Shown here: piece by piece, positions 495 to 63,876 of the stretch
Position numbering within the stretch: the stretch's first letter is position 1
Layout of the letters: each line of letters begins with the position of its first letter
Source: a virus
Virus record (IMG/VR): IMGVR_UViG_3300009151_000061
Span: 8,424 to 72,423 of that record
Length of the DNA: 64,000 bases
Strand: one strand, 5' to 3'
Notes under the pieces: generated by a model
What the model was told of the DNA's origin: nothing
What the model saw: only the letters and a program-made list of their open reading frames with translations
The model's database searches: none
Program-made: the position numbers and the translations under genes

Positions 495-737
495 ATGATC
501 AAAAATGACGAACTTTATCCTCTCTATATTGCTTATTTAGAGAGAAAAAATTTAAGTAAAGGAGCTCTGAGTTTATCAAAAATATCAGAGCAACTATTCT
601 CCGAGTTTAAGGAGAAGTATATAAACTCACCTGGTTTTAGGGACAAACAAGATAAACTTTATCTAAACGTATCAAGGGATATAAAACTTGACTCTATATT
701 AGAGGATGATTTTGATAAGTTTATGAATGATTTATGA
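495..737 (+). CDS. hypothetical protein with RDxK[IL]D motif (RDIKLDSIL)
   Basis: ORF track; motif near the C-terminus. Confidence 0.7.
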   Translation: MIKNDELYPLYIAYLERKNLSKGALSLSKISEQLFSEFKEKYINSPGFRDKQDKLYLNVSRDIKLDSILEDDFDKFMNDL

Positions 738-762
738 GTTTCATAATAAAATATATACCATT

Positions 763-1500
763 ATGAAACATATTCTTTCTATAAATGAGTTATACAAAAG
801 TACTTATATTAGTGCAGCTAATAAGATTAGCAAGAGTCAGGATTCAAGAAGATCCAGACTTAAAAGACATGCTGATTTAAAGGGTATTAACGAACCTATC
901 GATAGAGAGTTCCACTATAGATTTACCTTTGATAAGGTAAAATTCCCACCTGATTTATATTACATGGTAAATCCAAAAGGATTTAACCAAGAAGAATTAA
1001 AGAAAATGGGTCCTTTTGCACCCAATCCACCTTATTTTTTCATAACTGATTTTAAATATGACAGGGATCAAGAATTTGGTGGTCATTTTGATCCAAAAGG
1101 ATGGTCAGTTGTTCTAAAAGTAAATTTCAAGTCCAATTATGGTGATGTAATAGAAACAAGTTGCCGTCTTGATCTAGATAAAGATGGTAAGACATGTCAT
1201 CCTAGACTTTTTGTAAAATATGGGGATAATGATTCGAGAGGATTTTATTTTAGTAACAGAAAAGATGCTAATATGTTTAAGAAATTCCTAATTAAAGAAG
1301 TCTTACCAGAATTAGAAAGTCAAAAGATAATAGCTATAAAGAGTGAATACTTAATAAATAATTTTAGCGAAACTACTTATAAAGATAATGGAAAAGATAA
1401 ACCTGTTATTAAACTAGTAAACGGGGATCCAACAAGATGTTATATACCACTTCATTATATAAATAATATATCAATAAACGAAATATATGAAGAAGAATAA
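763..1500 (+). CDS. hypothetical protein with N-terminal MKHILSINE motif (putative head-internal protein)
   Basis: Start moved to ATG 763, 5 nt after AAATATATA. Confidence 0.7.
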   Translation: MKHILSINELYKSTYISAANKISKSQDSRRSRLKRHADLKGINEPIDREFHYRFTFDKVKFPPDLYYMVNPKGFNQEELKKMGPFAPNPPYFFITDFKYDRDQEFGGHFDPKGWSVVLKVNFKSNYGDVIETSCRLDLDKDGKTCHPRLFVKYGDNDSRGFYFSNRKDANMFKKFLIKEVLPELESQKIIAIKSEYLINNFSETTYKDNGKDKPVIKLVNGDPTRCYIPLHYINNISINEIYEEE

Positions 1501-1501
1501 T

Positions 1502-1978
1502 ATGATACATATTAAAACATTTGAAAGTTATAATAGCCGATTAGATGATATATTAGATAAGATTAATAAGTCTGGTAAATCGTCCCTAACTCAATCAGAG
1601 TTAGAGTATTTAAATGCTTATTCTACTGATGATTTTGGCAAGATGGATTATATTAACAAGATAGAAGGTCAAAGAAATTTTAACTCTTCTGATGGTTACT
1701 TTAGATTTAAGTATGAATATACAGAGGATTATGGTGATGAAGTTTTTTACTATGGTATTTTATATGTTCCTGATTTAGAGTGGCCAAATGGTAAAAGAAT
1801 AACTGGAGAGCTTGAGGGATATATAGCTGTGTATCCTAGTAAGCAAATAGCTCCGGTATTTGAAAAGGATGGATATGATGTATTAGAATTTTGTAATGGA
1901 CTAGAATATGAACTAGACTCATTTTTAGAATATGTAATAGATACTATAGAAGATGAAAAAATGGGTTCTGATATTTAA
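1502..1978 (+). CDS. hypothetical protein, MIHIKTFES N-terminus plus DUF6576-like segment
   Basis: LDDILDKINKSGKSSLTQSELEYL resembles the short domain at the C-terminus of Bacteroidota rhomboid proteases. Start moved to ATG 1502. Confidence 0.6.
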   Translation: MIHIKTFESYNSRLDDILDKINKSGKSSLTQSELEYLNAYSTDDFGKMDYINKIEGQRNFNSSDGYFRFKYEYTEDYGDEVFYYGILYVPDLEWPNGKRITGELEGYIAVYPSKQIAPVFEKDGYDVLEFCNGLEYELDSFLEYVIDTIEDEKMGSDI

Positions 1979-1984
1979 TATATA
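1976..1984 (+). promoter_or_regulatory. putative late promoter TAATATATA
   Basis: Recurrent motif upstream of structural and N-tagged genes. Confidence 0.6.
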
Positions 1985-2008
1985 GAAATATAAAAATAAT
2001 GATTTAAT

Positions 2009-3973: not shown

Positions 3974-4447
3974 ATGAGAGATTTAAGAATACTAAAGTCC
4001 CTACAAAAATCTAGACACGAACATTTTTTATCAGTTGATTTCGAATTTTATAAAAGATGGAAATACATTATCAAATTAATCTTATTTTTTAATAAGAAAT
4101 ATATTCCTTGTGAGATTTTTCGTAGAAAATATAAATACCAAAGAAACTTTGTAGTCGTTGGACTAAAATACTCTGGTAAAAATGTAAAACGCAGAACGTC
4201 CGGTTTTGCAAAAGAGTTCGTACAAAATCACGACAACCCAAAGTGTATCTATTGTGAGTCAAAACTCAATATGGAGAACGCAACCTCAGACCACATCGTA
4301 CCTATATCCTCCGGTGGAAATAATTGCCAAGTAAATATAATTGTTTGTTGTAAAGCTTGTAATAATGAAAGAGGGAACATGGAGTTTAATGAGTATCTCA
4401 AAAGAAAGAATCCAAAATATAAAGACGTAAAATATCCATTTATATGA
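3974..4447 (+). CDS. HNH endonuclease
   Basis: CIYC...ATSDHIVPISSGG...NIIVCCKACNNERG. Confidence 0.85.
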   Translation: MRDLRILKSLQKSRHEHFLSVDFEFYKRWKYIIKLILFFNKKYIPCEIFRRKYKYQRNFVVVGLKYSGKNVKRRTSGFAKEFVQNHDNPKCIYCESKLNMENATSDHIVPISSGGNNCQVNIIVCCKACNNERGNMEFNEYLKRKNPKYKDVKYPFI

Positions 4448-4809
4448 TTTACTATGACCAAAAAATTGATAAGACATTTGATATCATTTCATATACATTT
4501 ACTAATCAGTCCCGGATTGAACTTACTGTTACCTTTCATGATTCTGACTCAAGATACTTAGATGAATGGTTTCGTGATATTTACAACAGCGATGGATCAT
4601 GGATTAAACCATCTGAATATAAAAGAGAACTGTATATAATTGATAAAATTGATATCCATCTAATAGGGTGTTTTATAACAAACATAAGTTATAAACCTAA
4701 TAGTACATGTGTTGTAAATATAAGTTCAGACTATTATAATAGTGGGATTGATTTATCCTCCGTTAGACATATACACAGAGACAAAAAAATAGACCAAATC
4801 TTAAACTGA
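4444..4809 (+). CDS. possible degenerate gp19 tail-tube-like protein with C-terminal RDKKIDQILN
   Basis: LTVTFHD...LDEWF...PSEYKR...LIGCFIT...SDYY recalls the T4 gp19 pattern (by eye). Confidence 0.4.
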   Translation: MIYYDQKIDKTFDIISYTFTNQSRIELTVTFHDSDSRYLDEWFRDIYNSDGSWIKPSEYKRELYIIDKIDIHLIGCFITNISYKPNSTCVVNISSDYYNSGIDLSSVRHIHRDKKIDQILN

Positions 4810-6000: not shown

Positions 6001-6008
6001 TATATTTG
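6001..6008 (+). promoter_or_regulatory. Bacteroidota-type promoter TATATTTG
   Basis: TAnnTTTG 4 nt before ATG 6013; TTTG at 5980-5983. Confidence 0.6.
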
Positions 6009-6012
6009 TGAT

Positions 6013-6318
6013 ATGGAAAAGATCAAAGCCAAGCTAATAAAAAGAAAAGATATACGAGACGATATTAAAAAATCCTTTTTACAAGCATACTCTGAAGAAG
6101 GTCATGTCAGTGTGGGATATTTCACGGAATGGCCGGAACTTGGATCGAGTTTTCGATTTCATGAGTATTCGGATGAACTAAATGAATATTTTTCACTTGT
6201 TACAACATTCGTAGTTGAAATGGTCGACCATCGAACATTTAAAACCAAAAATAGCATCTATGAACTTCTAACAATAGTAGATGAAAGGGATGATAAAATT
6301 GATAACTTATTAAAATAA
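6013..6318 (+). CDS. hypothetical protein with C-terminal RDDKIDNLLK
   Basis: ORF track; motif ends at the stop codon. Confidence 0.75.
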   Translation: MEKIKAKLIKRKDIRDDIKKSFLQAYSEEGHVSVGYFTEWPELGSSFRFHEYSDELNEYFSLVTTFVVEMVDHRTFKTKNSIYELLTIVDERDDKIDNLLK

Positions 6319-6321
6319 TAT

Positions 6322-6795
6322 ATGAATAAAAAATCTTTAGAACTATTGAACATGATTCTAACATCTATTAAATCAGATGAGAAGGTTAGACATAAGTGGA
6401 ATACTAGACAAACATATATAAATGAAAACAGAGATTATATATCCGACAAAGTGGATTATTATGATATTACCTTAAATAATAAGGAAATGATATATGTATA
6501 TGAGATACGTATATCACGAGTACCTAGGATTTTCTTTGATAGATATATCACCCAAATAAACTTAACAAGTGCTACTGATAGGTATGCTAGTGCAAACAAT
6601 ATGTTTTTTGACTCAAAAACAGCATTCTATACAAGAAGTATACAAAAACGTATATTCAAATTACTCTTGGATAGGGAAAAAGAATCCTTGCTTAAAAAAG
6701 AAGACGAAAAATTCGACATCTTAATCAAAGATGTCCAGAAATCAGTTAATAAGGTTAATCTAAGAGACGACAAAATAGATGAAGTTTTAAAATAA
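6322..6795 (+). CDS. hypothetical protein with C-terminal RDDKIDEVLK
   Basis: ORF track; motif ends at the stop codon. Confidence 0.75.
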   Translation: MNKKSLELLNMILTSIKSDEKVRHKWNTRQTYINENRDYISDKVDYYDITLNNKEMIYVYEIRISRVPRIFFDRYITQINLTSATDRYASANNMFFDSKTAFYTRSIQKRIFKLLLDREKESLLKKEDEKFDILIKDVQKSVNKVNLRDDKIDEVLK

Positions 6796-6824: not shown

Positions 6825-7214
6825 TTATTTGAAACCTCTAAGGGTTTTTGCTAAGTTTAATCTTTTATATTTCTTAGCATCAGAACCTCCAAGTTGTACA
6901 CCTGGCTTTTCTTTATCCTTATCTTTCTTTCTTAACTTAGAAAGTTCAGAGTTGATCTCAGTACTTGAGATTTTCTCACCCTTCTTTTTCTTCATGCTTC
7001 TGCGTAAAGAACCCGGACTCTTGATAGCATCCTGAATCCACTTAGATTCAGTAACACCTTCTTCATGTCCTTCAGCTTCCCAGCACATTTTTTGAAGTTC
7101 TTCTTCGTGTATATCTTCAAGTTCATGTCTTTCCCAACCACAGTTACAAAGCTTACCAATCATTTCTTCTCTATTTGAAGATTCATATGATTCAAATGTT
7201 TTTAAGTGTTTCAT
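6825..7214 (-). CDS. hypothetical protein, MKHLKTFES N-terminus, basic C-terminal half
   Basis: ORF track; acidic N-half, then VTES, then Lys-rich KWIQDAIKSPGSLR segment. Confidence 0.75.
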   Translation of the reverse strand: MKHLKTFESYESSNREEMIGKLCNCGWERHELEDIHEEELQKMCWEAEGHEEGVTESKWIQDAIKSPGSLRRSMKKKKGEKISSTEINSELSKLRKKDKDKEKPGVQLGGSDAKKYKRLNLAKTLRGFK

Positions 7215-7216
7215 AG

Positions 7217-8305
7217 TTATTTCTTTCTTTTGTATGCAAACTCTTTATACAAGTCTTCGTCTTGCTTAGTTTGGTTCTTCATTTGATTATGATAATCATC
7301 TTTAGGAGCATCCTTGGTATTTGGGTAATGCCACTGTGTATCATTATTCCACTTTGTGAAAGGCATTACTGAACCCTCCATACCCCATGGTTGAACAGAT
7401 GTCTCATTCATACCTGTACTGAATCTACTTCTTTCACCACCCGGCTTAGAACGGTCAGTTGTTTTGTAGATATTGAACTTTGTCTCGTGTTCGAAGCTAT
7501 TAGTAAGTGCGGATTTCTCTTTGAAAGACTTCTTAACATGATCAACATTCTTTGGATCGTCATCTGAGAATCCGATAGATACACTCTTAGCACCAATCTT
7601 TTCACCAAAATGGTTACACTTTTCAATGAACTTATCAAGAGCCATTTCCTTAGCAACTTCTGGATTTTCTGTAGATCCCTGACCAAATTCATTTTTGAAT
7701 GAGTCAGATGAAACTCCATAGAAATCACAGTTGTCTAAATAAACTTGAATAAGAGGTGAATCAGTTAGTTTATCTTTGGCTATTCTTGAAAATTGGTCTA
7801 CATCACCTGGAGAGAATAAGTAAGCATTTTTAAGACAATGACTATACAAACTGAATTTTTGATCCTCAGTTAGTATATTATTAATAATATACTCAACCGC
7901 ACTTCTTATTGTTTCTGGTTCGTGTCCTCTTGCAGTTACTATCGCAAAAATAGCACCCTCACTTAAACATTTAATAAACGCTTCCCAAGCTGGAGCAAAT
8001 CTTCCTTGATTTACAGCATCCATTGTATCTTCAAGGAATGCTTTTTTACCTCTTGGTCCAAAGTCTCTGAACTCACAAAAGGCTTCCCCCGGATCATTAT
8101 TCCTTAATCTATAATTTTGCTTATCATTTCTAACAGTAGCAAACTCAGCAGTTGATACGTCAATAGGCAACCATCCATCACCGACCTTTTGATCCATGTG
8201 AATAACTGTTGACATGTGTAGGATATTATCATCCCAGTCAAAAGCGTAATAATGTAGTTCAATGTTAGCTGACTCCTTGATGTAGTCACCAAATTTTCTA
8301 ATCAT
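7217..8305 (-). CDS. HAD-superfamily phosphatase with N-terminal motif
   Basis: AFDWDDNI (motif I), IVTARGH (motif II), GFSDDD (motif IV). Start moved to ATG 8305 (MIRKFGDYIKES). Confidence 0.75.
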   Translation of the reverse strand: MIRKFGDYIKESANIELHYYAFDWDDNILHMSTVIHMDQKVGDGWLPIDVSTAEFATVRNDKQNYRLRNNDPGEAFCEFRDFGPRGKKAFLEDTMDAVNQGRFAPAWEAFIKCLSEGAIFAIVTARGHEPETIRSAVEYIINNILTEDQKFSLYSHCLKNAYLFSPGDVDQFSRIAKDKLTDSPLIQVYLDNCDFYGVSSDSFKNEFGQGSTENPEVAKEMALDKFIEKCNHFGEKIGAKSVSIGFSDDDPKNVDHVKKSFKEKSALTNSFEHETKFNIYKTTDRSKPGGERSRFSTGMNETSVQPWGMEGSVMPFTKWNNDTQWHYPNTKDAPKDDYHNQMKNQTKQDEDLYKEFAYKRKK

Positions 8306-8306: not shown

Positions 8307-8696
8307 TTATCTTCTTGAACGTTTTGGAGCAACTTTTCTAGATTCGTTAACTCTTTTTACTTTCTTATTCTTGTTAAAATAAGCAGAGAATGATTCTAAA
8401 GTACCTTCTTCAGCTGGAGCTTCTTCTTCCTCTTCCTCTTCTTCACCCATTTCTTCCTCTTCACCTGCTTCTTCTTCACCCATTTCTTCTTCGTCGCCTA
8501 AGTCGGTTTCTTCTTCACCAAAAGCTTCCATGTCTTCACCATCTTCTTCAGATTCGTGACCTGGGTGATCTTCACCACCTTCTAATTCAAACTCTTCTAC
8601 GACTTCGCCGTCTTTAGAAGCGCTTACTACTAGAAGACCTTCTTCTCTTTCTTCTATTGTTATCTCGTAACCGTGCATTTCAATAGTTGTTTTCAT
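8307..8696 (-). CDS. acidic hypothetical protein
   Basis: Glu-rich; TAATATATA at 8718-8726 (-). Confidence 0.7.
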   Translation of the reverse strand: MKTTIEMHGYEITIEEREEGLLVVSASKDGEVVEEFELEGGEDHPGHESEEDGEDMEAFGEEETDLGDEEEMGEEEAGEEEEMGEEEEEEEEAPAEEGTLESFSAYFNKNKKVKRVNESRKVAPKRSRR

Positions 8697-8791: not shown

Positions 8792-9448
8792 ATGCAAGAT
8801 TTTAGAAAATATGCCACCAAACATAGAGGCATTAGTAGTACTTATTTTGATTCATACCAAAAGAAAGCACTAACACAACACATATTAGAAGACGCTGGAG
8901 AAGGAATAATGGTTGATATCTTTTCTAAACTTATAGAAAGCAGAATCATATTCCTTTCAACAGAAATGGAATCTGACGTATGTAACATTATAAAAGCTCA
9001 ACTATTATATCTTGAACAGATGGATTCTGAAGAAGACATTAAGATATACATTGATAGTCCCGGTGGATCTGTTTATAGTGGATTAGGATTACTTGATACT
9101 ATGGATTATGTTAAACCAGACATTGCTACAATCAATACTGGACTAGCTGCTTCAATGGGTGCTGTAATCCTTTGTTCTGGTGCTAAAGGTAAGAGAAAGT
9201 CCCTTAAAAGGTCAAGAACAATGATTCACCAGCCACTATCGGCTAGTTATGGATACTCACAAGCATCCGATATGGAGATAGAAGCAAGAGAGGTAAACTC
9301 ACTTAAAAAAGAACTTTATGAAATTATATCAGAAAGGACTAACCAAAGTTATGATAGAGTAGAGAAGGACTCTGATAGAGACTATTGGATGACTGCTGAG
9401 GAAGCGAAGGCTTATGGTATGATTGACGAGATTATAAAGAAAAAATAA
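8792..9448 (+). CDS. clpP: ATP-dependent Clp protease proteolytic subunit
   Basis: IYIDSPGGSVYSG, GLAASMGAVIL (catalytic Ser), MIHQP (His), DSDRDYWMTAEEAKAYGMID. Confidence 0.95.
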   Translation: MQDFRKYATKHRGISSTYFDSYQKKALTQHILEDAGEGIMVDIFSKLIESRIIFLSTEMESDVCNIIKAQLLYLEQMDSEEDIKIYIDSPGGSVYSGLGLLDTMDYVKPDIATINTGLAASMGAVILCSGAKGKRKSLKRSRTMIHQPLSASYGYSQASDMEIEAREVNSLKKELYEIISERTNQSYDRVEKDSDRDYWMTAEEAKAYGMIDEIIKKK

Positions 9449-10052: not shown

Positions 10053-11693
10053 ATGAATCTACGCTATGATAAAGAACAAGAAAAATTTGTAGTCGCTGGA
10101 GCAACCAGAATAGAATATCACCAACTAAACCTTTGGTTAACAAGACATGTCAAGGGTTATAGATTCATGCCTGCCTTTAAGATGGGGGTTTGGAATGGAC
10201 AAACATCTTACTTTGATAACGGAAAAGTTAACTTAGGTCTTTGGAAGGAATGTTGGAAAGCTTGTAAGGAAATAGGGGTTACATTTAACATTGAAAATAA
10301 AGAGGACTTCCCTCTAAATAGAGAAGTTACATTAGAAGGACTAACTGAATTTTGTAAGGACTTCTACAAACAGTATAAGGTTAAAGACAGAAAAACCGGT
10401 GAGTGGATTCCATTCATGCCGTATGACTATCAGATTGAAACTGCTTTTAAAATACTTAGGAATAGATACTGTATGGCGGAAGTTGCCACTTCAGGTGGTA
10501 AATCCCTAGTTATATCTATTGTCATCTTTTACATATTAAAGAATATGAACCCAGATGCTAAATTTTTAATTATAGTTCCTTCTATTACACTAGTTACTCA
10601 GTTCTATGAAAATATTATGGAGTATAACTATGGTAATAATTATTTAGATAAATACAATAACACTGTAGAATTCAGAGACCATCTTATTGATGCTATCCTT
10701 AATGACGACCCAAACTATAAGCCGTGTCATATCAGAATGGAAGAAATCATGTCGGATAAACCACGTAAATATACCGGACCTTCTCAACCAAATATTTATA
10801 TCGGATGTTATCAGTCATTAGAGAAATGGCCAAAGGAATTCTTCCATCAATTTCATACTGTCGCCTGTGATGAAGCACACGGTGCAAAGGCAACCACTTT
10901 AACAACTATTCTTAAAAGAACTTTTGGACATGCTTATAACAGGTTTGGAGTTAGTGGTACATTCCCATCTGACGACACATTAGAGATACTAACTATTCAA
11001 TCTGTATTAGGGCCAAAAGTAACCCAGATTGAAGCATCTGCTTTAGTTAAGTCTGGTACGATTACTCCTATGGAAATAAGGGCAGTTATACTAAATCATG
11101 CAACCGGTGAAATGAATGATAGGTTATCTGCTATAAGAAAGATGGGTGCCGGTGCAGAGGCTTACAGATATGAGATGGATTATATACAACAATCAGAAAA
11201 AAGATTGGAGTTTATAAAAAAGATGGTCGATAAATGTACTAGCAATACCCTGTTATTATTTAACACTATTGAATATGGTAAGAAGATCGTCAATAAACTT
11301 AGAGAAGATCTAAAGGATAAGGAATTCTATTATATTGCCGGTGAGATTAAGAATAAGGAAAGAGAAGCTATTAAGAAAGCAATGGAACGAACCGATGGTA
11401 AGGTTATTGTGCTGGTTGCATCATATGGTACACTTTCAACAGGGGTTTCCATCAACGCTATCTTTAATGTCATATTTGCAGACTCGCCTGGTAAATCCGA
11501 GGGTAAGATTATTCAATCAATTGGTAGGGCTTTAAGAAAACATGATGACAAGAAAATAGCAACTATTTTCGATATAGTAGATGTATTCGATCCAAAAGAA
11601 CTAAATAATACATTATATAAGCATTTCCTAGAGCGAGAAAAATACTATAAGAATAGAAGCTATCCGTGTAAGGTTATTAAAATGAATCTTTAG
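10053..11693 (+). CDS. uvsW: UvsW-like SF2 DNA helicase
   Basis: GYRFMPAFKMGVWNG, ATSGGKS (Walker A), CDEAH, GVSGT, STGVSI, QSIGRALR. Confidence 0.9.
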   Translation: MNLRYDKEQEKFVVAGATRIEYHQLNLWLTRHVKGYRFMPAFKMGVWNGQTSYFDNGKVNLGLWKECWKACKEIGVTFNIENKEDFPLNREVTLEGLTEFCKDFYKQYKVKDRKTGEWIPFMPYDYQIETAFKILRNRYCMAEVATSGGKSLVISIVIFYILKNMNPDAKFLIIVPSITLVTQFYENIMEYNYGNNYLDKYNNTVEFRDHLIDAILNDDPNYKPCHIRMEEIMSDKPRKYTGPSQPNIYIGCYQSLEKWPKEFFHQFHTVACDEAHGAKATTLTTILKRTFGHAYNRFGVSGTFPSDDTLEILTIQSVLGPKVTQIEASALVKSGTITPMEIRAVILNHATGEMNDRLSAIRKMGAGAEAYRYEMDYIQQSEKRLEFIKKMVDKCTSNTLLLFNTIEYGKKIVNKLREDLKDKEFYYIAGEIKNKEREAIKKAMERTDGKVIVLVASYGTLSTGVSINAIFNVIFADSPGKSEGKIIQSIGRALRKHDDKKIATIFDIVDVFDPKELNNTLYKHFLEREKYYKNRSYPCKVIKMNL

Positions 11694-13168
11694 TTCTTAG
11701 TTTTTTTAACCTGATTAGGATCATATTTAATTCTAATAACAGTTGATATTAGACTAACCTTTCTACTCTTTTTATATACACCACCGCCTTCTCTAGACCC
11801 TTTCTCATCTGTATTACCCTCTATGGTATCAACTCTACCATCTTTAAGTGTACCTACTGATAAACCTATATGACTGAAATTAAATATTATTATATCACCT
11901 GGTAATATACTAGTAAATGGTGATTTATAAACTTCTACAAAGCTTGAGTTATTCGTCGCCCAGTTTCTAAAGTCATAAGCACCGGCTGTTTGTGGTAGCC
12001 TGAATGAGTGTGGTATTCCCTTTGACGCAACAGTTTTAAACAGATAACATATAAATGCCGCACACCAAGCAAAACCAGAACCTTTTAGGAAGGTTGATCT
12101 CTGATATAATGATTCGACTTGTGGTCCACTATTTTCGTTTGCACTATAGTGTTTTCCTTCATATGACCACTCCAGTTCCTTTACTCCAACCTGTGTATAA
12201 GCATGTTTAACCATTTCCTGAGCAAACTGGTTTGTTATTCCCGAAGAAGGTCCTACTGAAGGGTCATTATAAACTGGTGGAGTTGTTGGAACTTTAGAAT
12301 CATTAGTAGGGTCGTTAGTTATATTAGCTTTATTATTTTCGTCAACTTTAGGCTTAAAGTCTTCAGAATTTGCATCAACTGTAGATTCACTATCCGTATT
12401 AAAGTCTTTTGTAGATTTTTTGAATGTATCTCCATATTGTGGAGTATTTTGTCTATTCTGAGCATTATCACTAACTGTAGATACTTTAAAGTTATCGTTT
12501 ATATAAACATTGTTTGACAAGAACTTTGGATCTCTCAATGTTTTATATTGGTTTAAACAATCAATTAACTCTGGGTTTGCAACTACAGGTGAACCTAAAT
12601 TACCTAAATATGGACCATCATTTGCTCCCAATAAGTTATCAACTAATGTATCAAACCAGTTCATAAAATTAGTACCAAGTATTGCTTGTTGATCCGCATT
12701 AGCGTCCCCCAAAGACAATTTTCCTTGATTATCCTTTAGGTTTAAATCAATAGTTTCTGATTTTATGTTAATATTATTATACTTATAGTCGATCATCAAC
12801 CCATCTGTGTCATTTGAGAATATCTGTGTCTTGTGATCAAACATAAGAGATCTCATGGAAGTATATTCTGATGTTGATAAACTATCTAACTTATCCTGTA
12901 GGTTTCTATTATAATGTTGAGCGAATATATATTCCGGTTTATATGGATTACCATCATCAAATACAACTGATAAAACCTTACCAACTTCGGGTAGTATGAA
13001 CATATTACCATTAAGATCTTTCCAAGGGGTTGCCCATGGTAGGTCTTCCTTAGGTATATCTTCATACACGTTCATAACACGTACTTTAATTCTACCTATT
13101 TTCTGTGGATCTTCGTTGTCCTCAACAACTCCAACAAATATTTGATTTTTTAATTCTTCTCTTGTCAT
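11690..13168 (-). CDS. baseplate hub/spike protein (gp5-like OB domain) with C-terminal CHAP-like peptidoglycan hydrolase
   Basis: FVGVVEDNEDPQKIGRIKVRV...DLPWA N-terminus; AWCAAF...HIGL...TIEGNT C-terminus. Confidence 0.8.
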   Translation of the reverse strand: MTREELKNQIFVGVVEDNEDPQKIGRIKVRVMNVYEDIPKEDLPWATPWKDLNGNMFILPEVGKVLSVVFDDGNPYKPEYIFAQHYNRNLQDKLDSLSTSEYTSMRSLMFDHKTQIFSNDTDGLMIDYKYNNINIKSETIDLNLKDNQGKLSLGDANADQQAILGTNFMNWFDTLVDNLLGANDGPYLGNLGSPVVANPELIDCLNQYKTLRDPKFLSNNVYINDNFKVSTVSDNAQNRQNTPQYGDTFKKSTKDFNTDSESTVDANSEDFKPKVDENNKANITNDPTNDSKVPTTPPVYNDPSVGPSSGITNQFAQEMVKHAYTQVGVKELEWSYEGKHYSANENSGPQVESLYQRSTFLKGSGFAWCAAFICYLFKTVASKGIPHSFRLPQTAGAYDFRNWATNNSSFVEVYKSPFTSILPGDIIIFNFSHIGLSVGTLKDGRVDTIEGNTDEKGSREGGGVYKKSRKVSLISTVIRIKYDPNQVKKTKN

Positions 13169-26201: not shown

Positions 26202-26205
26202 TAAT

Positions 26206-42202: not shown

Positions 42203-42355
42203 ATGAAAAAGAAAAAGAAAATATCTGTTTCAATAAACAGATTTCTATTAGAAAAAATAGAAAAACTAACTACGAATAAAAGTAGACTAATAGAACAAAT
42301 CCTATTAGACTATCTAAATAAATCGGGAATAAAAACAGATGATATTATACTATGA
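42203..42355 (+). CDS. ribbon-helix-helix protein
   Basis: KKISVSINRFLLEKIE...NKSRLIEQILLDYL; start moved to ATG 42203. Confidence 0.7.
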   Translation: MKKKKKISVSINRFLLEKIEKLTTNKSRLIEQILLDYLNKSGIKTDDIIL

Positions 42356-44716: not shown

Positions 44717-45133
44717 TTATTCAAATAACTTACCAATTTTTTTGTCCCTATCCGTTTGAGTTATTATACCTTTAATAATTGGAGTCTTTTCCAATTCAAT
44801 AATAGTATGATATATTCTAAAATATCCTGGTTGGTGTTCCAACACATATGGGATTTTTAATAAGTCAAAATCAGGATGTTCTAATATACAATATTCTTTT
44901 ATAGCTTCCATTCTAGCATCTTCCCAACTCATATCGTTATCAAGATTCCCAATTAACTTACCGATTATTGGAGTAAGGTGTTCCATATTAATTATATTTA
45001 TAGTATTCCCCTTGAGATTCCAACTGGTAAATACCATTTTTATTTCTTTAAGCGGGTAAGTGTTGTTAGGATCTTTAATCGACCATTCACCGGGTCCGAT
45101 AGTTCCCGCATTTGCTTTGTATATTGGTTCCAT
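44717..45133 (-). CDS. hypothetical protein with C-terminal RDKKIGKLFE
   Basis: ORF track. Confidence 0.7.
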   Translation of the reverse strand: MEPIYKANAGTIGPGEWSIKDPNNTYPLKEIKMVFTSWNLKGNTINIINMEHLTPIIGKLIGNLDNDMSWEDARMEAIKEYCILEHPDFDLLKIPYVLEHQPGYFRIYHTIIELEKTPIIKGIITQTDRDKKIGKLFE

Positions 45134-46784: not shown

Positions 46785-46830
46785 ATTGTATATATTAAAA
46801 TCCAACCCATTACTTTGTCCATTATAATTT

Positions 46831-47562
46831 TTATGGTTCTGTAAAAATTTTATTACCATCTGTGAACTTTAATCCCTTTAACTGTCCATTAATGGAGTTA
46901 CAAATATGCTCACTGTTACTAATAGTATTTTCTAATATTGAAAGCATTATATTCAATATAGAATATATTTTTAATAAATTCTTTTCAGAAGTATAAAACT
47001 GACTATCACAAACACCACTTATTAAATCTATTGTAAGTGATATTATATCATTATTCTTTATCTTCATCTTCTCAATAACTATCTTAGGTATTCCACTATT
47101 TTCCATTTCCCTTTCATAGTCGTAGATAGTATCATTAATAAGAGTTAATAATGAGTTCCAAAGAGTAGGATCATCCATAGTCTCAAACTTTTTATCATCA
47201 ACATATTTCTTAATATTTTCTTTGTGCTTTTTTAGATAAATAGATAAGTATTTTCTAAACACAACAGTTCTATACTCAGTTGAAAACTGAATAGTTGGGA
47301 CTCTTGAATACATCCAAAAGTCAATATACTTAAAGATTTCATGGTTTAATATATCGGATTCTGTTATAGTTCTAATATTAACAGTCTCCGTTTTTTTCTT
47401 CATTACTTTATCAAGAAAACGATCACTTATTTTAGTCATAAAACTATTGAACCATGTGGACTTAGTTAACATAAGGACAAGAGTATAAACTACACCAGCT
47501 AGTATAGTAACCATCACACTTTGACCCAAATGTTTTTCAAAATATTGAAATATATCTTTCAT
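46831..47562 (-). CDS. membrane-anchored late protein
   Basis: N-terminal hydrophobic helix; TAATATATA at 47568-47576 (-). Confidence 0.65.
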   Translation of the reverse strand: MKDIFQYFEKHLGQSVMVTILAGVVYTLVLMLTKSTWFNSFMTKISDRFLDKVMKKKTETVNIRTITESDILNHEIFKYIDFWMYSRVPTIQFSTEYRTVVFRKYLSIYLKKHKENIKKYVDDKKFETMDDPTLWNSLLTLINDTIYDYEREMENSGIPKIVIEKMKIKNNDIISLTIDLISGVCDSQFYTSEKNLLKIYSILNIMLSILENTISNSEHICNSINGQLKGLKFTDGNKIFTEP

Positions 47563-50561: not shown

Positions 50562-50589
50562 AAAGACTCAGATTACTCTGAGTCTTTTT
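50560..50589. terminator. bidirectional intrinsic terminator
   Basis: aaaaagactcaga-ttac-tctgagtcttttt. Confidence 0.8.
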
Positions 50590-50905
50590 CATTTAATAAA
50601 TCATTTAACTTTTCTTCTCTTTCCCTTGATGTAGAATAATACTCTATACGAATCTGTGTTATCCTACCCATTCTTTTATTATCTGGAATCGGTATAGTAC
50701 TTGGGAATGTTATTTTTAAGACTTGTGTTGGTACATTATAATGAAATCCACACATATACTCCCAATCATCCTCAATAATAGCATATACTGATGATATACT
50801 ATTTGCATCTATATTAATGACGCTCTTGACTCCATGTGAGTATATCCCAGAGTATGGACTCCAAGTAAGATAATCATAATCAATATAGTCTTTATATAGT
50901 TTCAT
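50573..50905 (-). CDS. hypothetical protein with REEKLNDLL motif
   Basis: ORF track. Confidence 0.7.
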   Translation of the reverse strand: MKLYKDYIDYDYLTWSPYSGIYSHGVKSVINIDANSISSVYAIIEDDWEYMCGFHYNVPTQVLKITFPSTIPIPDNKRMGRITQIRIEYYSTSREREEKLNDLLNEKDSE

Positions 50906-51164
50906 TTAATATATCATCTATTTTCTCATCTCGTAAGTCGTTTAGATTAATAAAGTGTTCATTAAAAGTATCTAAACTGTAAGGTCCTAGATAAACTGGG
51001 TTAGTAAGCGAATACTTATTAAATATCCTATCTTCAATAAAATACCCTTCCTCCTCATTTCGTATATCACTTACTGCGCTCAGCAAATGATAATGATAAT
51101 CATCACCTAAATTAAAAACTCTAAGACCTCCTGCAGTTAAATCCTTCTTACATCTTACTTTCAT
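50892..51164 (-). CDS. hypothetical protein with C-terminal RDEKIDDILNETI
   Basis: ORF track. Confidence 0.7.
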   Translation of the reverse strand: MKVRCKKDLTAGGLRVFNLGDDYHYHLLSAVSDIRNEEEGYFIEDRIFNKYSLTNPVYLGPYSLDTFNEHFINLNDLRDEKIDDILNETI

Positions 51165-51761: not shown

Positions 51762-52679
51762 ATGGGAATATCTAATAAATATAATAAAGACGAATTTGTA
51801 AGGAGAGCTAATTTAGTTCATAATAATAAATACGACTATTCTTTATCTGATTATAAAAATAGCCGAGATAAAATTGATATTTTATGTCCTAAACACGGTA
51901 TATTTAGACAAATGCCATATAATCATTTACAAGGAAAGGGATGTAACTACTGTTCTATGAATCAAAAAAATACTATTAATGATTTTATAGATAAGTCGAA
52001 TAAAAAACATAATAGTAAGTATAACTACCCCGATAAAAATTACATAAATAGCGTAACCCAAATATCCATAGAATGTCCTAATCATGGAGTTTTTAGACAA
52101 ACTCCCGGAAATCATTTAAGAGGAGTGGGATGCCCAAAATGCAGTGGGAACAGAAAATTAACAACCGATGAATTTATAGATAAAGCTAATAAAAAACATA
52201 ACTTCTTATATAAGTACCCCAACTTAAACTATAAAAACTATGATAGTGAAATAGATATAGAGTGTCCCAAACATGGAATATTTAAACAGATAGTCAGAAA
52301 TCACTTGACTGGAAGAGGATGTCAAAAATGTAGAAATTCTAAAGGTGAGTTAAAAATATCAGAAATTTTAAGCAAAAATAATATAAAATACAAAAAAGAA
52401 TATACATTCAATGATTTAAGACACAAAGATTTATTAAAATTTGACTTTGCTATTTTAGATGATAAAGAACTAATAAAATATCTAATAGAATTTAACGGAC
52501 AACAACATTATGACTTTAAGAAAAAGTTCCATAAGGATTATGATAATTTTATTATAAATAAACATAGAGACAACCTAAAGATAGACTACTGTAGAAGGAA
52601 TGGATATAAGTTATATATAATAAGATATGATGATAATATCGAAGATATTATGAATAATATATTGAATGACAATATGTAA
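51762..52679 (+). mobile_element. putative homing endonuclease with DUF723-like repeats and PD-(D/E)XK/DUF559-like domain
   Basis: Three CP.HG.F.Q...NHL.G.GC repeats; SKGE...FDFAI...IEFNGQQHY. Confidence 0.75.
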
Positions 52680-54827: not shown

Positions 54828-55202
54828 TCAGATACTAAAGAAATCTCCATTACTATCATATTTTGATATTTTCTTTTGATATTTACCATAACTCTCCATA
54901 ATTTTTTTAATCCGGTCAAGTTCATCAGTCGATGTATTTTTCATTCTAGAGGAATTTGATAATGTTATTATTGTTGTGTAGAAAACTACGTCGCCCTCGG
55001 TTACAAAACTGATTTTTTTTGATTTTACTTCATAATCTTTACCATCAACTCCAATAATAGTTCCATTGGACGGAGCTTGGATAGGACTTTCAGTATCTAT
55101 ATCTTCCATAGAAGATAGAATAGAGTTCAACTTACTATCCCTCATTTCACTCTTATTAGTTTCATCAAACCTAAACTGCAATCTGTATATTACTTTTTTC
55201 AT
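54828..55202 (-). CDS. hypothetical protein with internal RDSKLNSIL
   Basis: ORF track. Confidence 0.65.
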   Translation of the reverse strand: MKKVIYRLQFRFDETNKSEMRDSKLNSILSSMEDIDTESPIQAPSNGTIIGVDGKDYEVKSKKISFVTEGDVVFYTTIITLSNSSRMKNTSTDELDRIKKIMESYGKYQKKISKYDSNGDFFSI

Positions 55203-55204: not shown

Positions 55205-55807
55205 TTATCTTTTATGAGAATGTAACTTTGATATAATCAAGTTACAATCTTTTATATGTTTTGTATCTGGTGAAAGTTCTATCAAGTCTAACTTACCTTG
55301 AATAATACTTTCAAGTGTTGCTACTTTATACTTACCAACTTCTATATACGGAGTTTTATCACCGTCCTGAGCGACAATATCTATTTCATGTTTAAACATA
55401 AATCTATCAGGACCACCATATCCATCAGACCCCATATTAACTCCAGTCTTTATATCAACCATTATTCTACTTGTAGAATATTTGAAGTTAGATATGTTAT
55501 TTTTACCACAAAATTTTAAGAAGGTTTCTCTATCTAAAATATAATCCCAATCTTTTGGAGTTCTACCAAGCAGAGGTTCTCCATTAAATCGATAAAATGA
55601 TAAAGCAGTAGAACCGGTTAAAATACCACCCATCTCATTCAAGTCATCTATCAACCCCCAACCTTTATATAGGAAGGAAAAGGACCCCTTCCTAGGGGTC
55701 TTTAAAGTTATCTTATTCAATGAGTCTCCAACCATTTCTGATAGTTTGAAGTCTCGGAATTCTGATTTTGTTTCCGATAAAAATTCCTTTATTTCTAAAT
55801 CGCTCAT
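55205..55807 (-). CDS. nucleotidyltransferase-fold protein
   Basis: GILTGSTAL...RTPKDWDYIL; RDFKLSEMV near the N-terminus. Confidence 0.6.
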   Translation of the reverse strand: MSDLEIKEFLSETKSEFRDFKLSEMVGDSLNKITLKTPRKGSFSFLYKGWGLIDDLNEMGGILTGSTALSFYRFNGEPLLGRTPKDWDYILDRETFLKFCGKNNISNFKYSTSRIMVDIKTGVNMGSDGYGGPDRFMFKHEIDIVAQDGDKTPYIEVGKYKVATLESIIQGKLDLIELSPDTKHIKDCNLIISKLHSHKR

Positions 55808-55808: not shown

Positions 55809-56279
55809 TTATTTTGTTAAGTCCTCTAACTTTTTATCCCTTTCTAACTGAACAGATGTATATCCGTTCCAGTCATCCCAAACATCTTTCTTTACTTTAT
55901 CTATAGATTTTCTATACCCATGTATCTGTGATACCTTGATGTTTATACGATTCTTCATAGTCTCAATATCAGAATATTGAAAATAATCGACCCTCTTAAC
56001 AAATAAACCTTTTACATCGTAAAGATAAACATAATGTTGACTATTCTTATAAACCAACTTTATAAAAAAACAACCCCATTCAGTGTGTATTTTTTTTACA
56101 GGTAAAAGGGAGAACCCAAAAATAGTATCGTCCATATTATCTGAATCGGTGTTGTTATAAATCTCAAGGAAATAAATAAGAAGTAGAGCCAAGTTTCCTA
56201 TAAGGAACCACATTGATAAAAGGGATGTTAGTCCCAAAAACAGGGCAAATAACCCATAGAAATACCAAATCGATTTCAT
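55809..56279 (-). CDS. membrane protein with C-terminal RDKKLEDLTK
   Basis: Hydrophobic N-terminus. Confidence 0.7.
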   Translation of the reverse strand: MKSIWYFYGLFALFLGLTSLLSMWFLIGNLALLLIYFLEIYNNTDSDNMDDTIFGFSLLPVKKIHTEWGCFFIKLVYKNSQHYVYLYDVKGLFVKRVDYFQYSDIETMKNRINIKVSQIHGYRKSIDKVKKDVWDDWNGYTSVQLERDKKLEDLTK

Positions 56280-57242
56280 TTATACTAAGTTTAGTTCGTG
56301 AATACTCTTCCTTTGATATAGTGCAGCTATTGACTTAGCAATCAAACTAGCACAACTGATAACATTAAGCTTGTGACTTGGTGATACCTTTGTAGACTTA
56401 TTATATGTTGACTCGATTGTATCCGATACAATCAGTTCCGATATTTTAGATGTACTCAGATTATCCAAAGCAGCACCACTCAATATACCATGTGTAGCTA
56501 CACACCTAACAGATGCAGCACCACTAGAAATAAGAAGTTCGGTAGCTTTCTTCATAGTTCCCATTGTATCAGCCATATCATCTACCACGATAACATTCTT
56601 ACCTGTAACATCTCCAACCAGTTCCATTGAGTGAACTTCATTTGGTTTAATACGTTTTTTATTAATCATAGCGAATGTAGCATCAGGGAAAGCTTTACAG
56701 AAGTCAGACGCTCTTTTAACCGCACCTTGGTCTGGAGCAACAATACAAAGGTTTTCTAGGTTAAGAGACCTAAAGTATTCAATGAATATCTTATTACCGT
56801 TCAAGTGGATAACTGGAATATTATAGAAACCTTGAATAGCTGAAGCATGTAGGTCAATAGTCATAACACGTGTTACACCAGCCTTTTCTAAGATATCAGC
56901 TAACATTTTAGAACCAATAGATGAACGTAGGTGGTCAGTTTTATCCTGACGAGAATAAGATTGGTAAGGAGCAACAAGAGTAAAAGATTTACATCCAGCT
57001 CTTTTAGCTGCGTCGATTACAAGAAGGGTCTCAACGATTGAGTCAGAAGAGTCGGTGCTATTGACGAAGAACACATCTTCGTCACGAACTGACTCACGAA
57101 AACATGGGAGTATTTCACCGTCAGAGAACTTTTCTATTTTAAGTGCCTTGAAACTTGATTCTGGAATATCAAATATTAAAGATAATTCCTTATGGATTTC
57201 AGAGGCTAATTTTGGATTGGAAGTACCAGAGTAGATTTTCAT
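56280..57242 (-). CDS. prs: ribose-phosphate pyrophosphokinase
   Basis: FSDGE, YSRQDK, DLHA, APDQGAVKRA, VDDMADTMGT, ATHG. Confidence 0.92.
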   Translation of the reverse strand: MKIYSGTSNPKLASEIHKELSLIFDIPESSFKALKIEKFSDGEILPCFRESVRDEDVFFVNSTDSSDSIVETLLVIDAAKRAGCKSFTLVAPYQSYSRQDKTDHLRSSIGSKMLADILEKAGVTRVMTIDLHASAIQGFYNIPVIHLNGNKIFIEYFRSLNLENLCIVAPDQGAVKRASDFCKAFPDATFAMINKKRIKPNEVHSMELVGDVTGKNVIVVDDMADTMGTMKKATELLISSGAASVRCVATHGILSGAALDNLSTSKISELIVSDTIESTYNKSTKVSPSHKLNVISCASLIAKSIAALYQRKSIHELNLV

Positions 57243-57252: not shown

Positions 57253-57519
57253 TTAATCGATCAAATGATCTATTACTGCGTTTCTTTTATTTTGTAGGTT
57301 AGGTACATAACTCATACGTCTTGTCCTAAGGAAATGTTTGAACTTATTATTCGGTAACATCTTGTGATAGCTTCTCCAAGAGAAGACAAAACTGTATCGA
57401 GCTTTTATGGTTAAAGAATTCCACCATATTAAATCCGACCCATGAAGTTTATTCTCCACAGACTTATACATATTTAGAATCTTTCTACGGTGTCGTTCTC
57501 TTACGTTGAGAGTTTTCAT
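57253..57519 (-). CDS. hypothetical protein with C-terminal RNAVIDHLID
   Basis: TAAATTTG at 57524-57531 (-), 4 nt from the ATG. Confidence 0.65.
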   Translation of the reverse strand: MKTLNVRERHRRKILNMYKSVENKLHGSDLIWWNSLTIKARYSFVFSWRSYHKMLPNNKFKHFLRTRRMSYVPNLQNKRNAVIDHLID

Positions 57520-57538
57520 ATCACAAATTTACGAAATA

Positions 57539-58006
57539 TTATTGAACTAAAAAATTAATTTTAAGGTCACGAGCCATTATAGTTGATAATATAAACACCC
57601 TATAGTTATTTGATATACCATCTTTAGTTACAACCACATCAATAATGGGAATACTTACTATTTCACCATTATTTTGGTATTGTTCTTGAGTCAAATGATA
57701 CCCACTTATATCACCATTTTGTTTATATCTATCCAGTATTGGATAGAAGAATGAGAAATATCCTGGTGTTATAACCCCACCAATATTTTTAACCCTTTCA
57801 TATTCTTTTTCACACTCAGTTCTAAGCTGTTTGAGTGTATCTGATAACATTCGTTCCCTCATTTGAATGTTATCAAATAACCTTTTTATTTCTGTATTCA
57901 TTTTGTAAAAAAATTTTAATTCTTCTATATCATAGAAGAGTCTATACCCCAGTTGATCCGAATCCACCTTCCATTCTTTCACTAGTGGATAGTTCTTCAA
58001 CCTCAA
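57539..58006 (-). CDS. hypothetical protein with C-terminal RDLKINFLVQ (start uncertain, maybe 57901)
   Basis: ORF track; the listed start overlaps dut. Confidence 0.6.
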   Translation of the reverse strand: MRLKNYPLVKEWKVDSDQLGYRLFYDIEELKFFYKMNTEIKRLFDNIQMRERMLSDTLKQLRTECEKEYERVKNIGGVITPGYFSFFYPILDRYKQNGDISGYHLTQEQYQNNGEIVSIPIIDVVVTKDGISNNYRVFILSTIMARDLKINFLVQ

Positions 58007-62413: not shown

Positions 62414-62463
62414 TCCTTGAAAGTTTTTACAAATATACGATAAATATTTTAATAAAACAACCT

Positions 62464-62793
62464 TTATAGATCTTTTTTGTAAACATAATCAAGTAACTCA
62501 AGTACCCTATTATTTGTTATCTCCTTGAATTTCGCCTTCTTAATCTGTGAGACTAGATCATTTCTAGATATAGTTTTCCTAGCAGTAGAAAGCTTCTTGA
62601 TCCAATCCAATTCTGATTTACTAAACGGTATTGGTGGTCCATCATACTTAGGTATTTTTGTAGCCACCGGTGGTGGTGGTGGATTACCTGATTTCTTTTC
62701 CTTTGGAATAGACTTCTTGTTTATACTCACTTCGGGTATTTCAAACTCCGCTGATAGGTCTTTCATACCTAGAATCCTTCTTATTAAACTCAT
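62464..62793 (-). CDS. hypothetical protein
   Basis: ORF track. Confidence 0.6.
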   Translation of the reverse strand: MSLIRRILGMKDLSAEFEIPEVSINKKSIPKEKKSGNPPPPPVATKIPKYDGPPIPFSKSELDWIKKLSTARKTISRNDLVSQIKKAKFKEITNNRVLELLDYVYKKDL

Positions 62794-62803
62794 ATTTTTA
62801 TTT

Positions 62804-63007
62804 TTATTTTATTCTAAATGTATCTTGAATTGTTGTTGTTACAATACTATCCTTACCGTCATCAGAATGATATGAAAGCACTTTAACTACACCATGTCGG
62901 TGTAGTTTAGCTTTCTCCTCATCAACCTCATTACGATGCAACCTATATAATATAGCCCCGATAGTTAAAGCTATAAAAATAACTGAAAGAAAAAATCTTA
63001 TCCTCAT
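62804..63007 (-). CDS. small protein with N-terminal membrane anchor
   Basis: Hydrophobic N-terminus. Confidence 0.55.
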   Translation of the reverse strand: MRIRFFLSVIFIALTIGAILYRLHRNEVDEEKAKLHRHGVVKVLSYHSDDGKDSIVTTTIQDTFRIK

Positions 63008-63876
63008 ATAAGTTCAAGTAGTTGGTTTAGTTTTTCGTCACGAATAAAACACTGTGTAATCTTCAAAATCTTTTCAGTTTCCTTCTTAACTACATAAGAG
63101 TCCTGACGAGAAAATATCTGAATATAACAGTTAAATACCTTAAACGCTTCAATCGAAAAATCATTATGTTGATTCAGTTCCAACTTATCCGAAGGTGTCA
63201 TTAAGACAGCAAGTTCCGACTTACTCAACCCACTAAGACGATCAGTTGCTGAGAAACGTATAGAGTTCTTAAACGCATCAAACTTCTGGTGATTTACTTT
63301 CAAATCCTTATCAACGATAATCTTCCTTATCTCCGATAACATTACACGTTCTCCAATCAAAGACTTAATAGAAGCAATCTGTTCATCAAATGTTTCAACA
63401 TCTATTGTCTGTGATATTTCTTCAGCCATTTTAGTAACACCCTTCAAATGTTTCTTAGACAAGGACATATTACGAATAGAAGAAACTAAATAAGAGTTGT
63501 TATCCTCACGGAATAAACCCATATTCATATTAAGTCTACGAGACTTATCAGTAGAGTTAAGAATAAAGAAAGCTTTATGGAATTTTGTAACACCAATCTC
63601 AACACTATCAGAAAGAAGTGTTAGTTCCTGAGTACCACGTTTCATAACAAAACGGTAGTTGGTAATATTGAAGTTAGATTCAAGTTGTGTAATCTTAGAT
63701 TTCAAGAAAGCCCGAATATCGAATATTTCATATAAACGAGATACGGTTGATGTGTTTATCACCGTATTAAAATATTTAGTAACGACTTGATCACCTACTT
63801 GAGAAATCTCAATAGCGTCAATCTTGTTAAAGAGTTCTGACTTGTTGTATTCGATAAAACCGTAACGTTTAATCAT
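63004..63876 (-). CDS. DUF932-like protein with C-terminal RDEKLNQLLELI
   Basis: FFILNSTDKSRRLNMNMGLFR resembles the DUF932 NSxD...G.FR motif. Confidence 0.5.
   Translation of the reverse strand: MIKRYGFIEYNKSELFNKIDAIEISQVGDQVVTKYFNTVINTSTVSRLYEIFDIRAFLKSKITQLESNFNITNYRFVMKRGTQELTLLSDSVEIGVTKFHKAFFILNSTDKSRRLNMNMGLFREDNNSYLVSSIRNMSLSKKHLKGVTKMAEEISQTIDVETFDEQIASIKSLIGERVMLSEIRKIIVDKDLKVNHQKFDAFKNSIRFSATDRLSGLSKSELAVLMTPSDKLELNQHNDFSIEAFKVFNCYIQIFSRQDSYVVKKETEKILKITQCFIRDEKLNQLLELI

Follow-up and report, generated by a model that had tools for sequence, protein, structure and literature searches.

The stretch of DNA analysed here, hereafter the window, comprises 64,000 nucleotides (bases 8424-72423) of a 72.4-kb viral contig (IMG/VR record IMGVR_UViG_3300009151_000061) with a GC content of ~31% and a CheckV completeness estimate of 26%. 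Several of its proteins carry, mostly at their C-terminus, a short, nine-residue peptide tag whose consensus is h-R-[DEN]-x-K-[IL]-[DN]-x-[ILV]-[LIF], followed by 0-3 residues. Genes were called as the longest ATG-initiated open reading frames (ORFs) of at least 40 amino acids (aa), with greedy removal of overlaps, which gave 95 genes on the contig; the tag copies were located using this gene call and a six-frame scan. The UvsW-like helicase of the contig (ORF 10053-11693 of the window) has its nearest relatives in uncultured huge phages, being 67% identical to those of LR745206 (635 kb) and LR756502 (642 kb), 49% to that of LR756504 (636 kb), 43% to that of LR756501 (735 kb) and 34% to that of LR756500 (462 kb); its identity to the proteins of T4-like phages is about 30%. 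By this measure the contig belongs to a T4-related jumbo/mega-phage lineage. The whole genomes of the five huge phages and of the T4-like cyanophage C48C1 were taken and submitted to the identical gene-calling procedure.

Tag copies in the window

All 17 peptides listed in the initial annotation are present in the sequence, as seen in the six-frame scan and in the gene-by-gene list; the numbers given there as motif positions are the low coordinates of the carrying ORFs. As originally noted, placement is mostly C-terminal: 15 of the 17 copies lie 1-21 residues before the stop codon and two are close to the N-terminus. An 18th copy, RDHLIDAIL (10674-10700, + strand), is internal and occupies an insertion of the UvsW-like helicase, at residue 208. 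In what follows the coordinates are those of the motif itself, which starts at the lower number on the + strand and at the higher number on the - strand, and the residues between tag and stop codon are written after a hyphen.

On the + strand, RDIKLDSIL (675-701) is found 11 aa before the stop codon of ORF 495-737 (80 aa), a protein with a weak Pox_D5-like match whose orthologs in LR756502 and LR745206 retain the tag. RDKKIDQIL-N (4777-4803), RDDKIDNLL-K (6286-6312), RDDKIDEVL-K (6763-6789) and REILLDQLL-S (26530-26556) terminate ORFs 4444-4809 (121 aa), 6013-6318 (101 aa), 6322-6795 (157 aa) and 26206-26562 (118 aa), respectively. RDSALDFLL-NS (27885-27911) terminates ORF 26964/27012-27920 (302-318 aa), whose LR756502 ortholog has HRGSLLDSLLGD as its C-terminal end, and a degenerate copy, RDRVLGEIF (28317-28343), lies 21 aa before the stop codon of ORF 27924-28409 (161 aa).

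On the - strand, RDEKIDNIL (26619-26645) and REEKLNDLL (50594-50620) precede the stop codons of ORFs 26559-26963 (134 aa) and 50573-50905 (110 aa) by 19 and 6 aa, respectively. The copies at the very end of their proteins are RDKKIGKLF-E (44723-44749; ORF 44717-45133, 138 aa), RDEKIDDIL-NETI (50907-50933; ORF 50892-51164, 90 aa), RDKKLEDLT-K (55815-55841; ORF 55809-56279, 156 aa, with two hydrophobic segments at its N-terminus), RNAVIDHLI-D (57259-57285; ORF 57253-57519, 88 aa, whose LR745206 ortholog ends with REAAIDLLLKNK), RDLKINFLV-Q (57545-57571; ORF 57539-57901/58006) and RDEKLNQLL-ELI (63016-63042; ORF 63004-63876, 290 aa). The two N-terminal copies are RDSKLNSIL (55116-55142), at residue 21 of ORF 54828-55202 (124 aa), and the degenerate RDFKLSEMV (55730-55756), at residue 18 of ORF 55205-55807 (200 aa), a protein with a DUF7277 match slightly below cut-off. 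Their orthologs in LR745206 display MRDAKLSIL at the equivalent place and IRDLNLSLI close to the N-terminus, respectively.

The tag is non-random and conserved as a peptide

The 95 called genes of the contig were searched with a strict pattern, R[DE]xK[IL][DN]x[ILV][LF], and in parallel with a looser one, using 2000 within-protein shuffles of the same genes as chance control. The strict pattern gave 9 matches, 7 of them in the last 25 aa (shuffle means 0.01 and 0.001), and the loose pattern gave 19, with 13 in the last 25 aa (shuffle means 0.93 and 0.09). With either pattern, none of the 2000 shuffles matched the observed values, in line with the C-terminal enrichment that had been predicted. 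Furthermore, a position-specific scoring matrix (PSSM) trained only on LR756502 and LR745206 found a C-terminal match in 12 of 87 proteins of the window contig, as compared to 0 of 87 in the mid-protein control.

Within the tag, the first two positions of the codons are conserved and the third varies (AGA/AGG/CGA/CGT, GAT/GAC, TTA/CTT/CTA). This third-position and synonymous variation indicates that conservation acts at the peptide level, as the initial annotation had claimed, and rules out a DNA-level repeat or a gene-boundary signal. The logo of the 107 tags of LR756502 shows an invariant Arg and a near-invariant Lys; position 2 is D59/E25/N23 with no Q, and positions 8 and 9 are I/L/V and L/I/F, with F in 5 of the 107. 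If helical, the tag would expose I5, I8 and L9 on one face, with R1/K4 along one rim and D2/D6 along the other.

Wherever homologs exist, the tag is the best-kept part of the protein. The last 18 residues of ORF 6322-6795 are invariant across six homologs that are 58-93% identical overall, the tag region of ORF 55809-56279 is likewise conserved in six homologs, and orthologs hold the tag at the same protein end, both N-terminal copies included. The invariant tails of these otherwise diverged homologs and the retention in orthologs indicate that selection acts on the tag itself.

Distribution of the tag and of its variant

According to the loose pattern, a C-terminal tag is present in 15 of the 95 called genes of the window contig, in 107 of 979 in LR756502 and in 90 of 945 in LR745206. 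The early estimate of about 17 copies in one window is thus confirmed, while the scale that it conveyed was too small, the tag marking 11-15% of the proteomes across the lineage. A degenerate DNA pattern matched 40 times in each of LR756502 and LR745206, and its reversed version never did. Among the LR756502 matches to the PSSM with a score of at least 10 (n = 161), 129 are located no more than 10 residues from the end and 11 at 11-25 residues, while 4 are N-terminal and 17 internal. Ten of the 107 LR756502 tags stop at the last hydrophobic residue and 37 add one residue, usually polar; some are trailed by up to 24 further residues.

The same PSSM found C-terminal matches in 46 of 817 LR756504 proteins and none in LR756501 (0/878), LR756500 (0/586) and C48C1 (0/168). 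LR756504, a sister genome, possesses a co-varying variant tag, R-K-x-K-I-[DE]-x-L-L-COOH, carried by 33 genes and placed mostly at the exact end of the protein; 19 of these 33 tags terminate exactly at LL, LI or similar. One region of this genome (record positions 606076-609209) consists of seven consecutive small genes that all end with the variant.

A pattern scan of IMG/VR returned 33 stretches. In 23 of them a C-terminal tag is borne by an ORF of 50 aa or more, a feature built into the pattern; 11 have two to five tags, something that the pattern does not demand. In 13 of the 14 larger IMG/VR contigs (85-385 kb) there are 2-12 matches to the strict pattern, against 0-1 for the control; the 14th large record (676 kb), classed as a provirus, has 2 strict matches and 1 control match. 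The 385-kb contig G007, estimated by CheckV to be 95% complete, contains 8 strict tags and no control match. Judging from these scans, the tag occurs throughout a lineage of jumbo and mega phages whose GC content is 23-33%.

The carriers are unrelated proteins

The carriers are small: their median length is 118 aa, compared to 154 aa for the other genes, and lengths range from 50 to 622 aa with a concentration around 90-160 aa. Both soluble and membrane proteins occur among them. Within the window, the best carrier-carrier BLASTP match has an E-value of 0.009 and covers the tag region, while the 107 LR756502 carrier bodies fall into 105 BLAST clusters and the 348 carriers of four genomes into 290 BLASTP families, 239 of which are singletons. 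Comparison of multi-member carrier families by hhalign gave no pair with a probability of at least 70 among the 589 pairs compared out of 1275. Hence the carrier bodies do not behave as one family in either search; membership in a single family is what the initial annotation had named as fatal to its proposal. All 17 carriers of the window stay below the Pfam gathering scores, and among 106 carriers 3 have a Pfam and 7 a PHROG match, each to a different family. The labels "NTase-fold" and "DUF932-like" earlier attached to carriers were not reproduced; the NTase-domain protein encoded at 28406-29011 is an untagged neighbour.

No homolog was detected in the three tagged relatives for 9 of the 17 window carriers, which points to fast gene turnover. 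Along the genome the carriers are clustered, with 24 adjacent pairs versus 11.6 expected. By composition, no disordered linker is detectable ahead of the tag; the preceding residues have the composition of ordinary folded proteins and are often beta-strand-like. The AlphaFold2 model of carrier 6322-6795, built on a 6-sequence alignment, has a mean predicted local distance difference test score (pLDDT) of 41.6, too low to place the tag helix as free or packed, and the ESM Atlas returned for this carrier unnamed clusters only, with scores not exceeding 0.86.

The tag is gained as a module

The insertion that bears the tag in the UvsW-like helicase is 16-22 residues long and common to the window contig, LR756502 and LR745206, while the UvsW proteins of LR756504, LR756501, LR756500, C48C1 and T4 (2OCA) are without it; the alignment to the solved T4 structure breaks exactly at the insertion site. 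An XPD/DinG-like helicase (Pfam assignment) of LR756502 and LR745206 likewise has a tag-bearing insertion that is missing from its orthologs. In ORF 63004-63876 the tag sits on a C-terminal extension that the LR756500 ortholog does not have, and a 132-aa protein of LR756502 possesses a tag-bearing C-terminal extension not found in its orthologs from untagged genomes. Since the tag can be added to a terminus or to a loop of a folded enzyme, it resembles a docking motif rather than a piece of a common fold.

We therefore consider it likely that the tag is a portable short linear docking motif that lets all carriers bind one receptor. The phage lineage would append it to 11-15% of its proteins, or insert it into loops, and the carriers, mainly small, fast-evolving, non-late products, would all be able to bind one conserved receptor. 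Of the earlier proposal that a short helix docks many accessory proteins onto one hub, the peptide-level, portable signal on unrelated proteins is upheld, while the hub itself is something we infer. As the initial annotation had supposed, no description of such a tag was found in the literature at the level of titles and abstracts, the supplements of huge-phage studies being a place where motif analyses could be held.

Promoter motifs and timing of the carriers

In the interval 12-32 nt ahead of start codons, the 8-mer AATATATA shows a 15-fold enrichment; it stands before the window's tail and baseplate genes, from which we infer that it is a late promoter. In LR756502 it is found before 205 of 872 non-carriers and 2 of 107 carriers (p = 2e-9), in LR745206 before 183 of 855 and 3 of 90 (p = 5e-6), and in the window contig before 25 of 80 and 1 of 15 (p = 0.06). 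With respect to this putative signal, the carriers look like early or middle genes.

The motif (T)TAATATATA, about 15-20-fold enriched, lies 12-41 nt upstream of 26 of the 95 contig start codons and also precedes 207 of 979 LR756502 genes; examples are the genes 13168-15534(-), 19444-21069(-), 34365-38180(-), 38841-40274(-) and 47645-49366(+). It is likely a phage-specific, perhaps late, promoter that marks tail and baseplate genes. A TAnnTTTG box, which we take to be the -7 element of Bacteroidota sigma-A, is located upstream of 10 of the 95 contig genes, among which are 5 of the 15 carriers (6001-6012, 26194-26205, 57520-57531 and others). This box hints at a Bacteroidota host and at transcription of some carriers by the host polymerase, i.e., early.

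A ClpC-type unfoldase as candidate receptor

LR756502, LR745206 and LR756504 each encode a ClpC-like ATPase of ~650-710 aa and two canonical ClpP proteins. In these three tagged genomes the ATPase has no Clp_N domain, while the UVR/M motif and the VGF ClpP-docking loop are present. In the untagged LR756501 the ATPase has the N-domain and neither M-domain nor VGF loop, and there is no ClpP; the untagged LR756500 has no such ATPase and only divergent ClpP-like genes. All six tagged IMG/VR contigs that hold the ATPase have the N-domain-less type (62-85% identity) with a [VI]GF loop and an acidic N-terminal stretch. The window itself encodes a canonical ClpP (8792-9448, +; Pfam CLP_protease, 232 bits), a candidate partner of this machinery.

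Some further observations concern these loci. In place of the Clp_N domain, the ClpC-like unfoldase (LR756502 440544-442667, homologs L207-L212) starts with a conserved acidic run (DDDEDE-like) followed by KSKTPVLD. Beside the window ClpP gene, two genes of unknown family, 8307-8696(-) and 7217-8305(-), are arranged divergently; their position is kept in LR756502 and LR745206, and they have no Pfam or PHROG match. PrkA (AAA+ kinase/protease-like) and SpoVR (LR756502 273831-275756 and 519947-521446; LR745206 480112-484920) are extremely conserved, with 79-84% identity between the two genomes. Of the six full genomes, only those of tagged megaphages encode them, and PrkA is further found in two IMG/VR contigs. 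As a receptor candidate PrkA was rejected, being absent from G007 and present in only 2 of 16 records.

Co-occurrence is what may link the Clp proteins to the tag, and on this ground we tentatively propose, as the leading but still doubtful candidate reading, that the docking motif has the phages' own ClpC-type unfoldase/ClpP as its receptor. The receptor would be protease-competent, acting with phage or host ClpP, and the tag would serve as a delivery handle that marks early accessory proteins for timed removal; alternatively, tagged proteins could be tethered as adaptors, bringing their bound targets to the protease. As with Clp degrons and adaptor tethers, a peptide at the C-terminus would bring many different proteins to a single AAA+ machine; the tag is accompanied by a dedicated ClpC-like/ClpP set, and the LR756504 variant in many cases ends with a free non-polar LL-COOH. 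For comparison, the ssrA tag, the C-terminal ClpX-binding tail of SspB and the MecA-ClpC pair are known Clp systems. Unlike the ssrA tag, the present one is genome-encoded and not added by tmRNA, and it tolerates internal positions and 0-25 trailing residues. To our knowledge, its sequence is unlike that of any degron.

Several points weigh against a Clp receptor. The co-occurrence amounts to one clade versus two outgroups. Among the six full genomes, the phyletic pattern of the tag is also that of at least 43 other genes. The nearly complete, tagged G007 has the ATPase and no ClpP, so that host ClpP would have to serve there; overall the ATPase is found in 6 and ClpP in 2 of the 14 tagged contigs, all but two of which are incomplete. 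The known Clp degrons work at a free terminus and show less of a pattern than the tag, which in these phages is also placed in internal helicase loops and is trailed by 0-25 variable residues, with no disordered linker before it. In addition, the LR756504 ATPase has no acidic N-terminal extension despite the more basic variant tag, so that simple charge matching does not account for recognition. Prediction of a complex of three window ClpP with carrier 6013-6318 gave no answer (score 0.00), which weighs neither way.

Among the hubs proposed at the outset, phage ClpP is thus not an obligatory one, as G007 does without it, and the different tail of the polymerase (see below) shows that the tag does not serve as canonical clamp motif here; the tag may nevertheless act as a degron or a localisation signal. 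tmRNA was discarded as source or model of the tag, there being none in the tagged genomes.

In its boldest form, which we regard as rather improbable, the proposal amounts to a protein-addressing code, in which one genome-encoded peptide, attachable to any new gene or to a loop of an old one, would route more than 100 early accessory proteins and two helicases to one phage-controlled machine. The small hypervariable carriers would be interchangeable "warheads" binding host targets, and the constant tag would hand them and their cargo to the N-domain-less ClpC/ClpP protease.

Other receptors and other explanations

A docking motif could equally serve a different receptor, namely a host hub (RNA polymerase, ClpX or the beta clamp) or an unannotated phage protein, and we keep this as a possibility that is far from established. 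All the evidence for a docking motif applies equally to it, as does the existence of the genes that share the phyletic pattern of the tag, and a tagged genome that is 95% complete encodes neither phage ClpP nor PrkA. For a host receptor, however, the difference of the tag variant between sister clades is a difficulty, though their hosts may differ too; such a clade-specific variant fits a phage receptor that co-evolves with the tag better than it fits a host machine of high conservation.

The chief named alternative is the sliding clamp, whose hydrophobic pocket would accommodate the tag as a PIP-box-like motif, so that tagged proteins would ride on phage DNA. Although this would extend the T4 use of gp45 as a hub, we judge it unlikely. 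Like clamp motifs, the tag is a short peptide on unrelated proteins, placed mostly at extreme C-termini and sometimes near N-termini or in loops; it is inserted into two DNA helicases and is also borne by a small protein in the polymerase/primase neighbourhood, and one window tag, RDSALDFLLNS, resembles the T4 clamp-binding motif. The tagged phages are related to T4, and T4-related phages already use the clamp as a hub. The tag spacing [DEN]-x-x-[IL]-x-x-[IL]-[LIF], one polar plus three hydrophobic positions, equals that of the PIP-box consensus Qxx[I/L]xxFF, as given in PMC9690074. The C-terminal clamp-binding motifs of T4 gp43, gp33 and gp55 are interchangeable according to PMC2988020. On the other hand, the tag has neither the Q nor the aromatic pair of the PIP-box (bacterial counterpart QL(S/D)LF) and has an Arg and a Lys instead. 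The C-terminal polymerase halves end with ...RLSVVMDIFGGSGF (or GGFK / GSGF), nearer to the C48C1 tail ...ATLEDFFG than to the tag, and with this different, T4-like tail on the polymerase, the canonical clamp motif of these phages is not the tag. No tag is carried by the primase, the gp41-like helicase or the clamp loader, and more than 100 carriers per genome, membrane proteins included, exceed by far the known clamp clientele, a tag on 11-15% of the proteome being quite unlike the T4 clamp tails, which are confined to a handful of DNA enzymes. Finally, a clamp gene was not found, either with the Pfam families DNA_PPF, PCNA_N and DNA_pol3_beta_3 or by hhalign of 77 conserved families against C48C1 gp45 (probability not above 1.4%). 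A gp55 homolog was not detected by phmmer either, and neither PDB nor Pfam has a relative of the 363-aa protein 31381-32472. As to the polymerase, which belongs to family B, it is split into two distant genes (G000 7030-8010, upstream of the window; LR756502 120483-121907 and 253958-255391), and its C-terminal half has the T4-like tail ...MDIFGGSGF.

Explanations other than recruitment to a hub of this kind appear much less probable. A sorting signal, by which proteins enter a compartment built by the phage or are packed in the virion and injected, would correspond at the C-terminus to the T4 capsid targeting sequence or to encapsulin cargo-loading peptides; like these, peroxisomal PTS1 or the nuclear localisation signal (NLS), the tag could be one terminal code read by one receptor on many unrelated proteins. 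Sorting signals are typically of this sort, with a terminal tag on about 10% of all proteins, the carriers are small ORFans as expected of host-takeover or anti-defence proteins, and two DNA helicases are tagged. This explanation is nevertheless very unlikely: the depletion of AATATATA before carriers argues against co-expression with the capsid and against a capsid-packaging signal, and polymerase, primase and replicative helicase are untagged, which excludes a general import signal for DNA enzymes. Moreover, the T4 targeting sequence is N-terminal, cleaved and found on late proteins, whereas the tag is C-terminal (129 of the 161 LR756502 matches) and its carriers are non-late. Similarly slight is the chance that tags associate with each other as a common oligomerisation or co-assembly helix. 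The amphipathic alternation of charges (R1, D2, K4, D6) is self-complementary and could pair antiparallel, and no linker separates tag and body; however, uncontrolled mixing of more than 100 proteins seems costly, the RKxK variant of LR756504 is less self-complementary, and insertion into loops of monomeric helicases would be hard to explain. Least credible of all is that the carriers form one hyper-diverged paralog family with the tag as its last conserved helix. The folded-like, often beta-strand-like residues just before the tag and the concentration of carrier lengths would fit such an origin, but the bodies share no BLAST or profile-profile similarity, their overall length range is wide and comprises soluble and membrane proteins, and the same peptide occurs at N-termini and as UvsW and XPD-like insertions that untagged orthologs do not have.

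Other features of the contig

Three paralogous HNH-type endonuclease genes (34-44% identity) are found at window positions 21121-21804(-) and 42352-43023(+) and upstream of the window. Two paralogous zinc-ribbon repeat proteins (DUF4379), encoded at 45723-46859 and 51762-52679, have the look of mobile or selfish elements dispersed over the contig. A phosphoribosyl pyrophosphate (PRPP) synthetase gene lies at 56280-57242(-), and a nicotinamide phosphoribosyltransferase gene at G000 603-2027, with 76% identity to an LR756502 gene that has NAPRTase/NAMPT_N Pfam matches; by these assignments, the two are phage-carried NAD-salvage genes. A 1271-aa protein of the window has no relative among the viral contigs searched.

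Implications for huge phages

Knowledge of huge phages comes mainly from metagenomes, and the majority of their genes are ORFans that lack annotation. One peptide on 11-15% of the proteome offers a handle on more than 100 ORFans per genome, grouping them functionally; it predicts a single receptor and provides a portable means of protein recruitment in these systems. Should the receptor be the phage ClpC/ClpP, these phages would schedule or redirect proteolysis with a degron or adaptor code of their own. The boldest form of the proposal, if true, would mean that viruses of bacteria have a system for targeted degradation whose receptor and tag co-evolve between clades (RD.. versus RK..). A clamp receptor would greatly broaden the view, derived from T4, that the clamp is a general hub. 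The clade variants (RDxK... versus RKxK...) make the co-evolution of receptor and tag directly testable.

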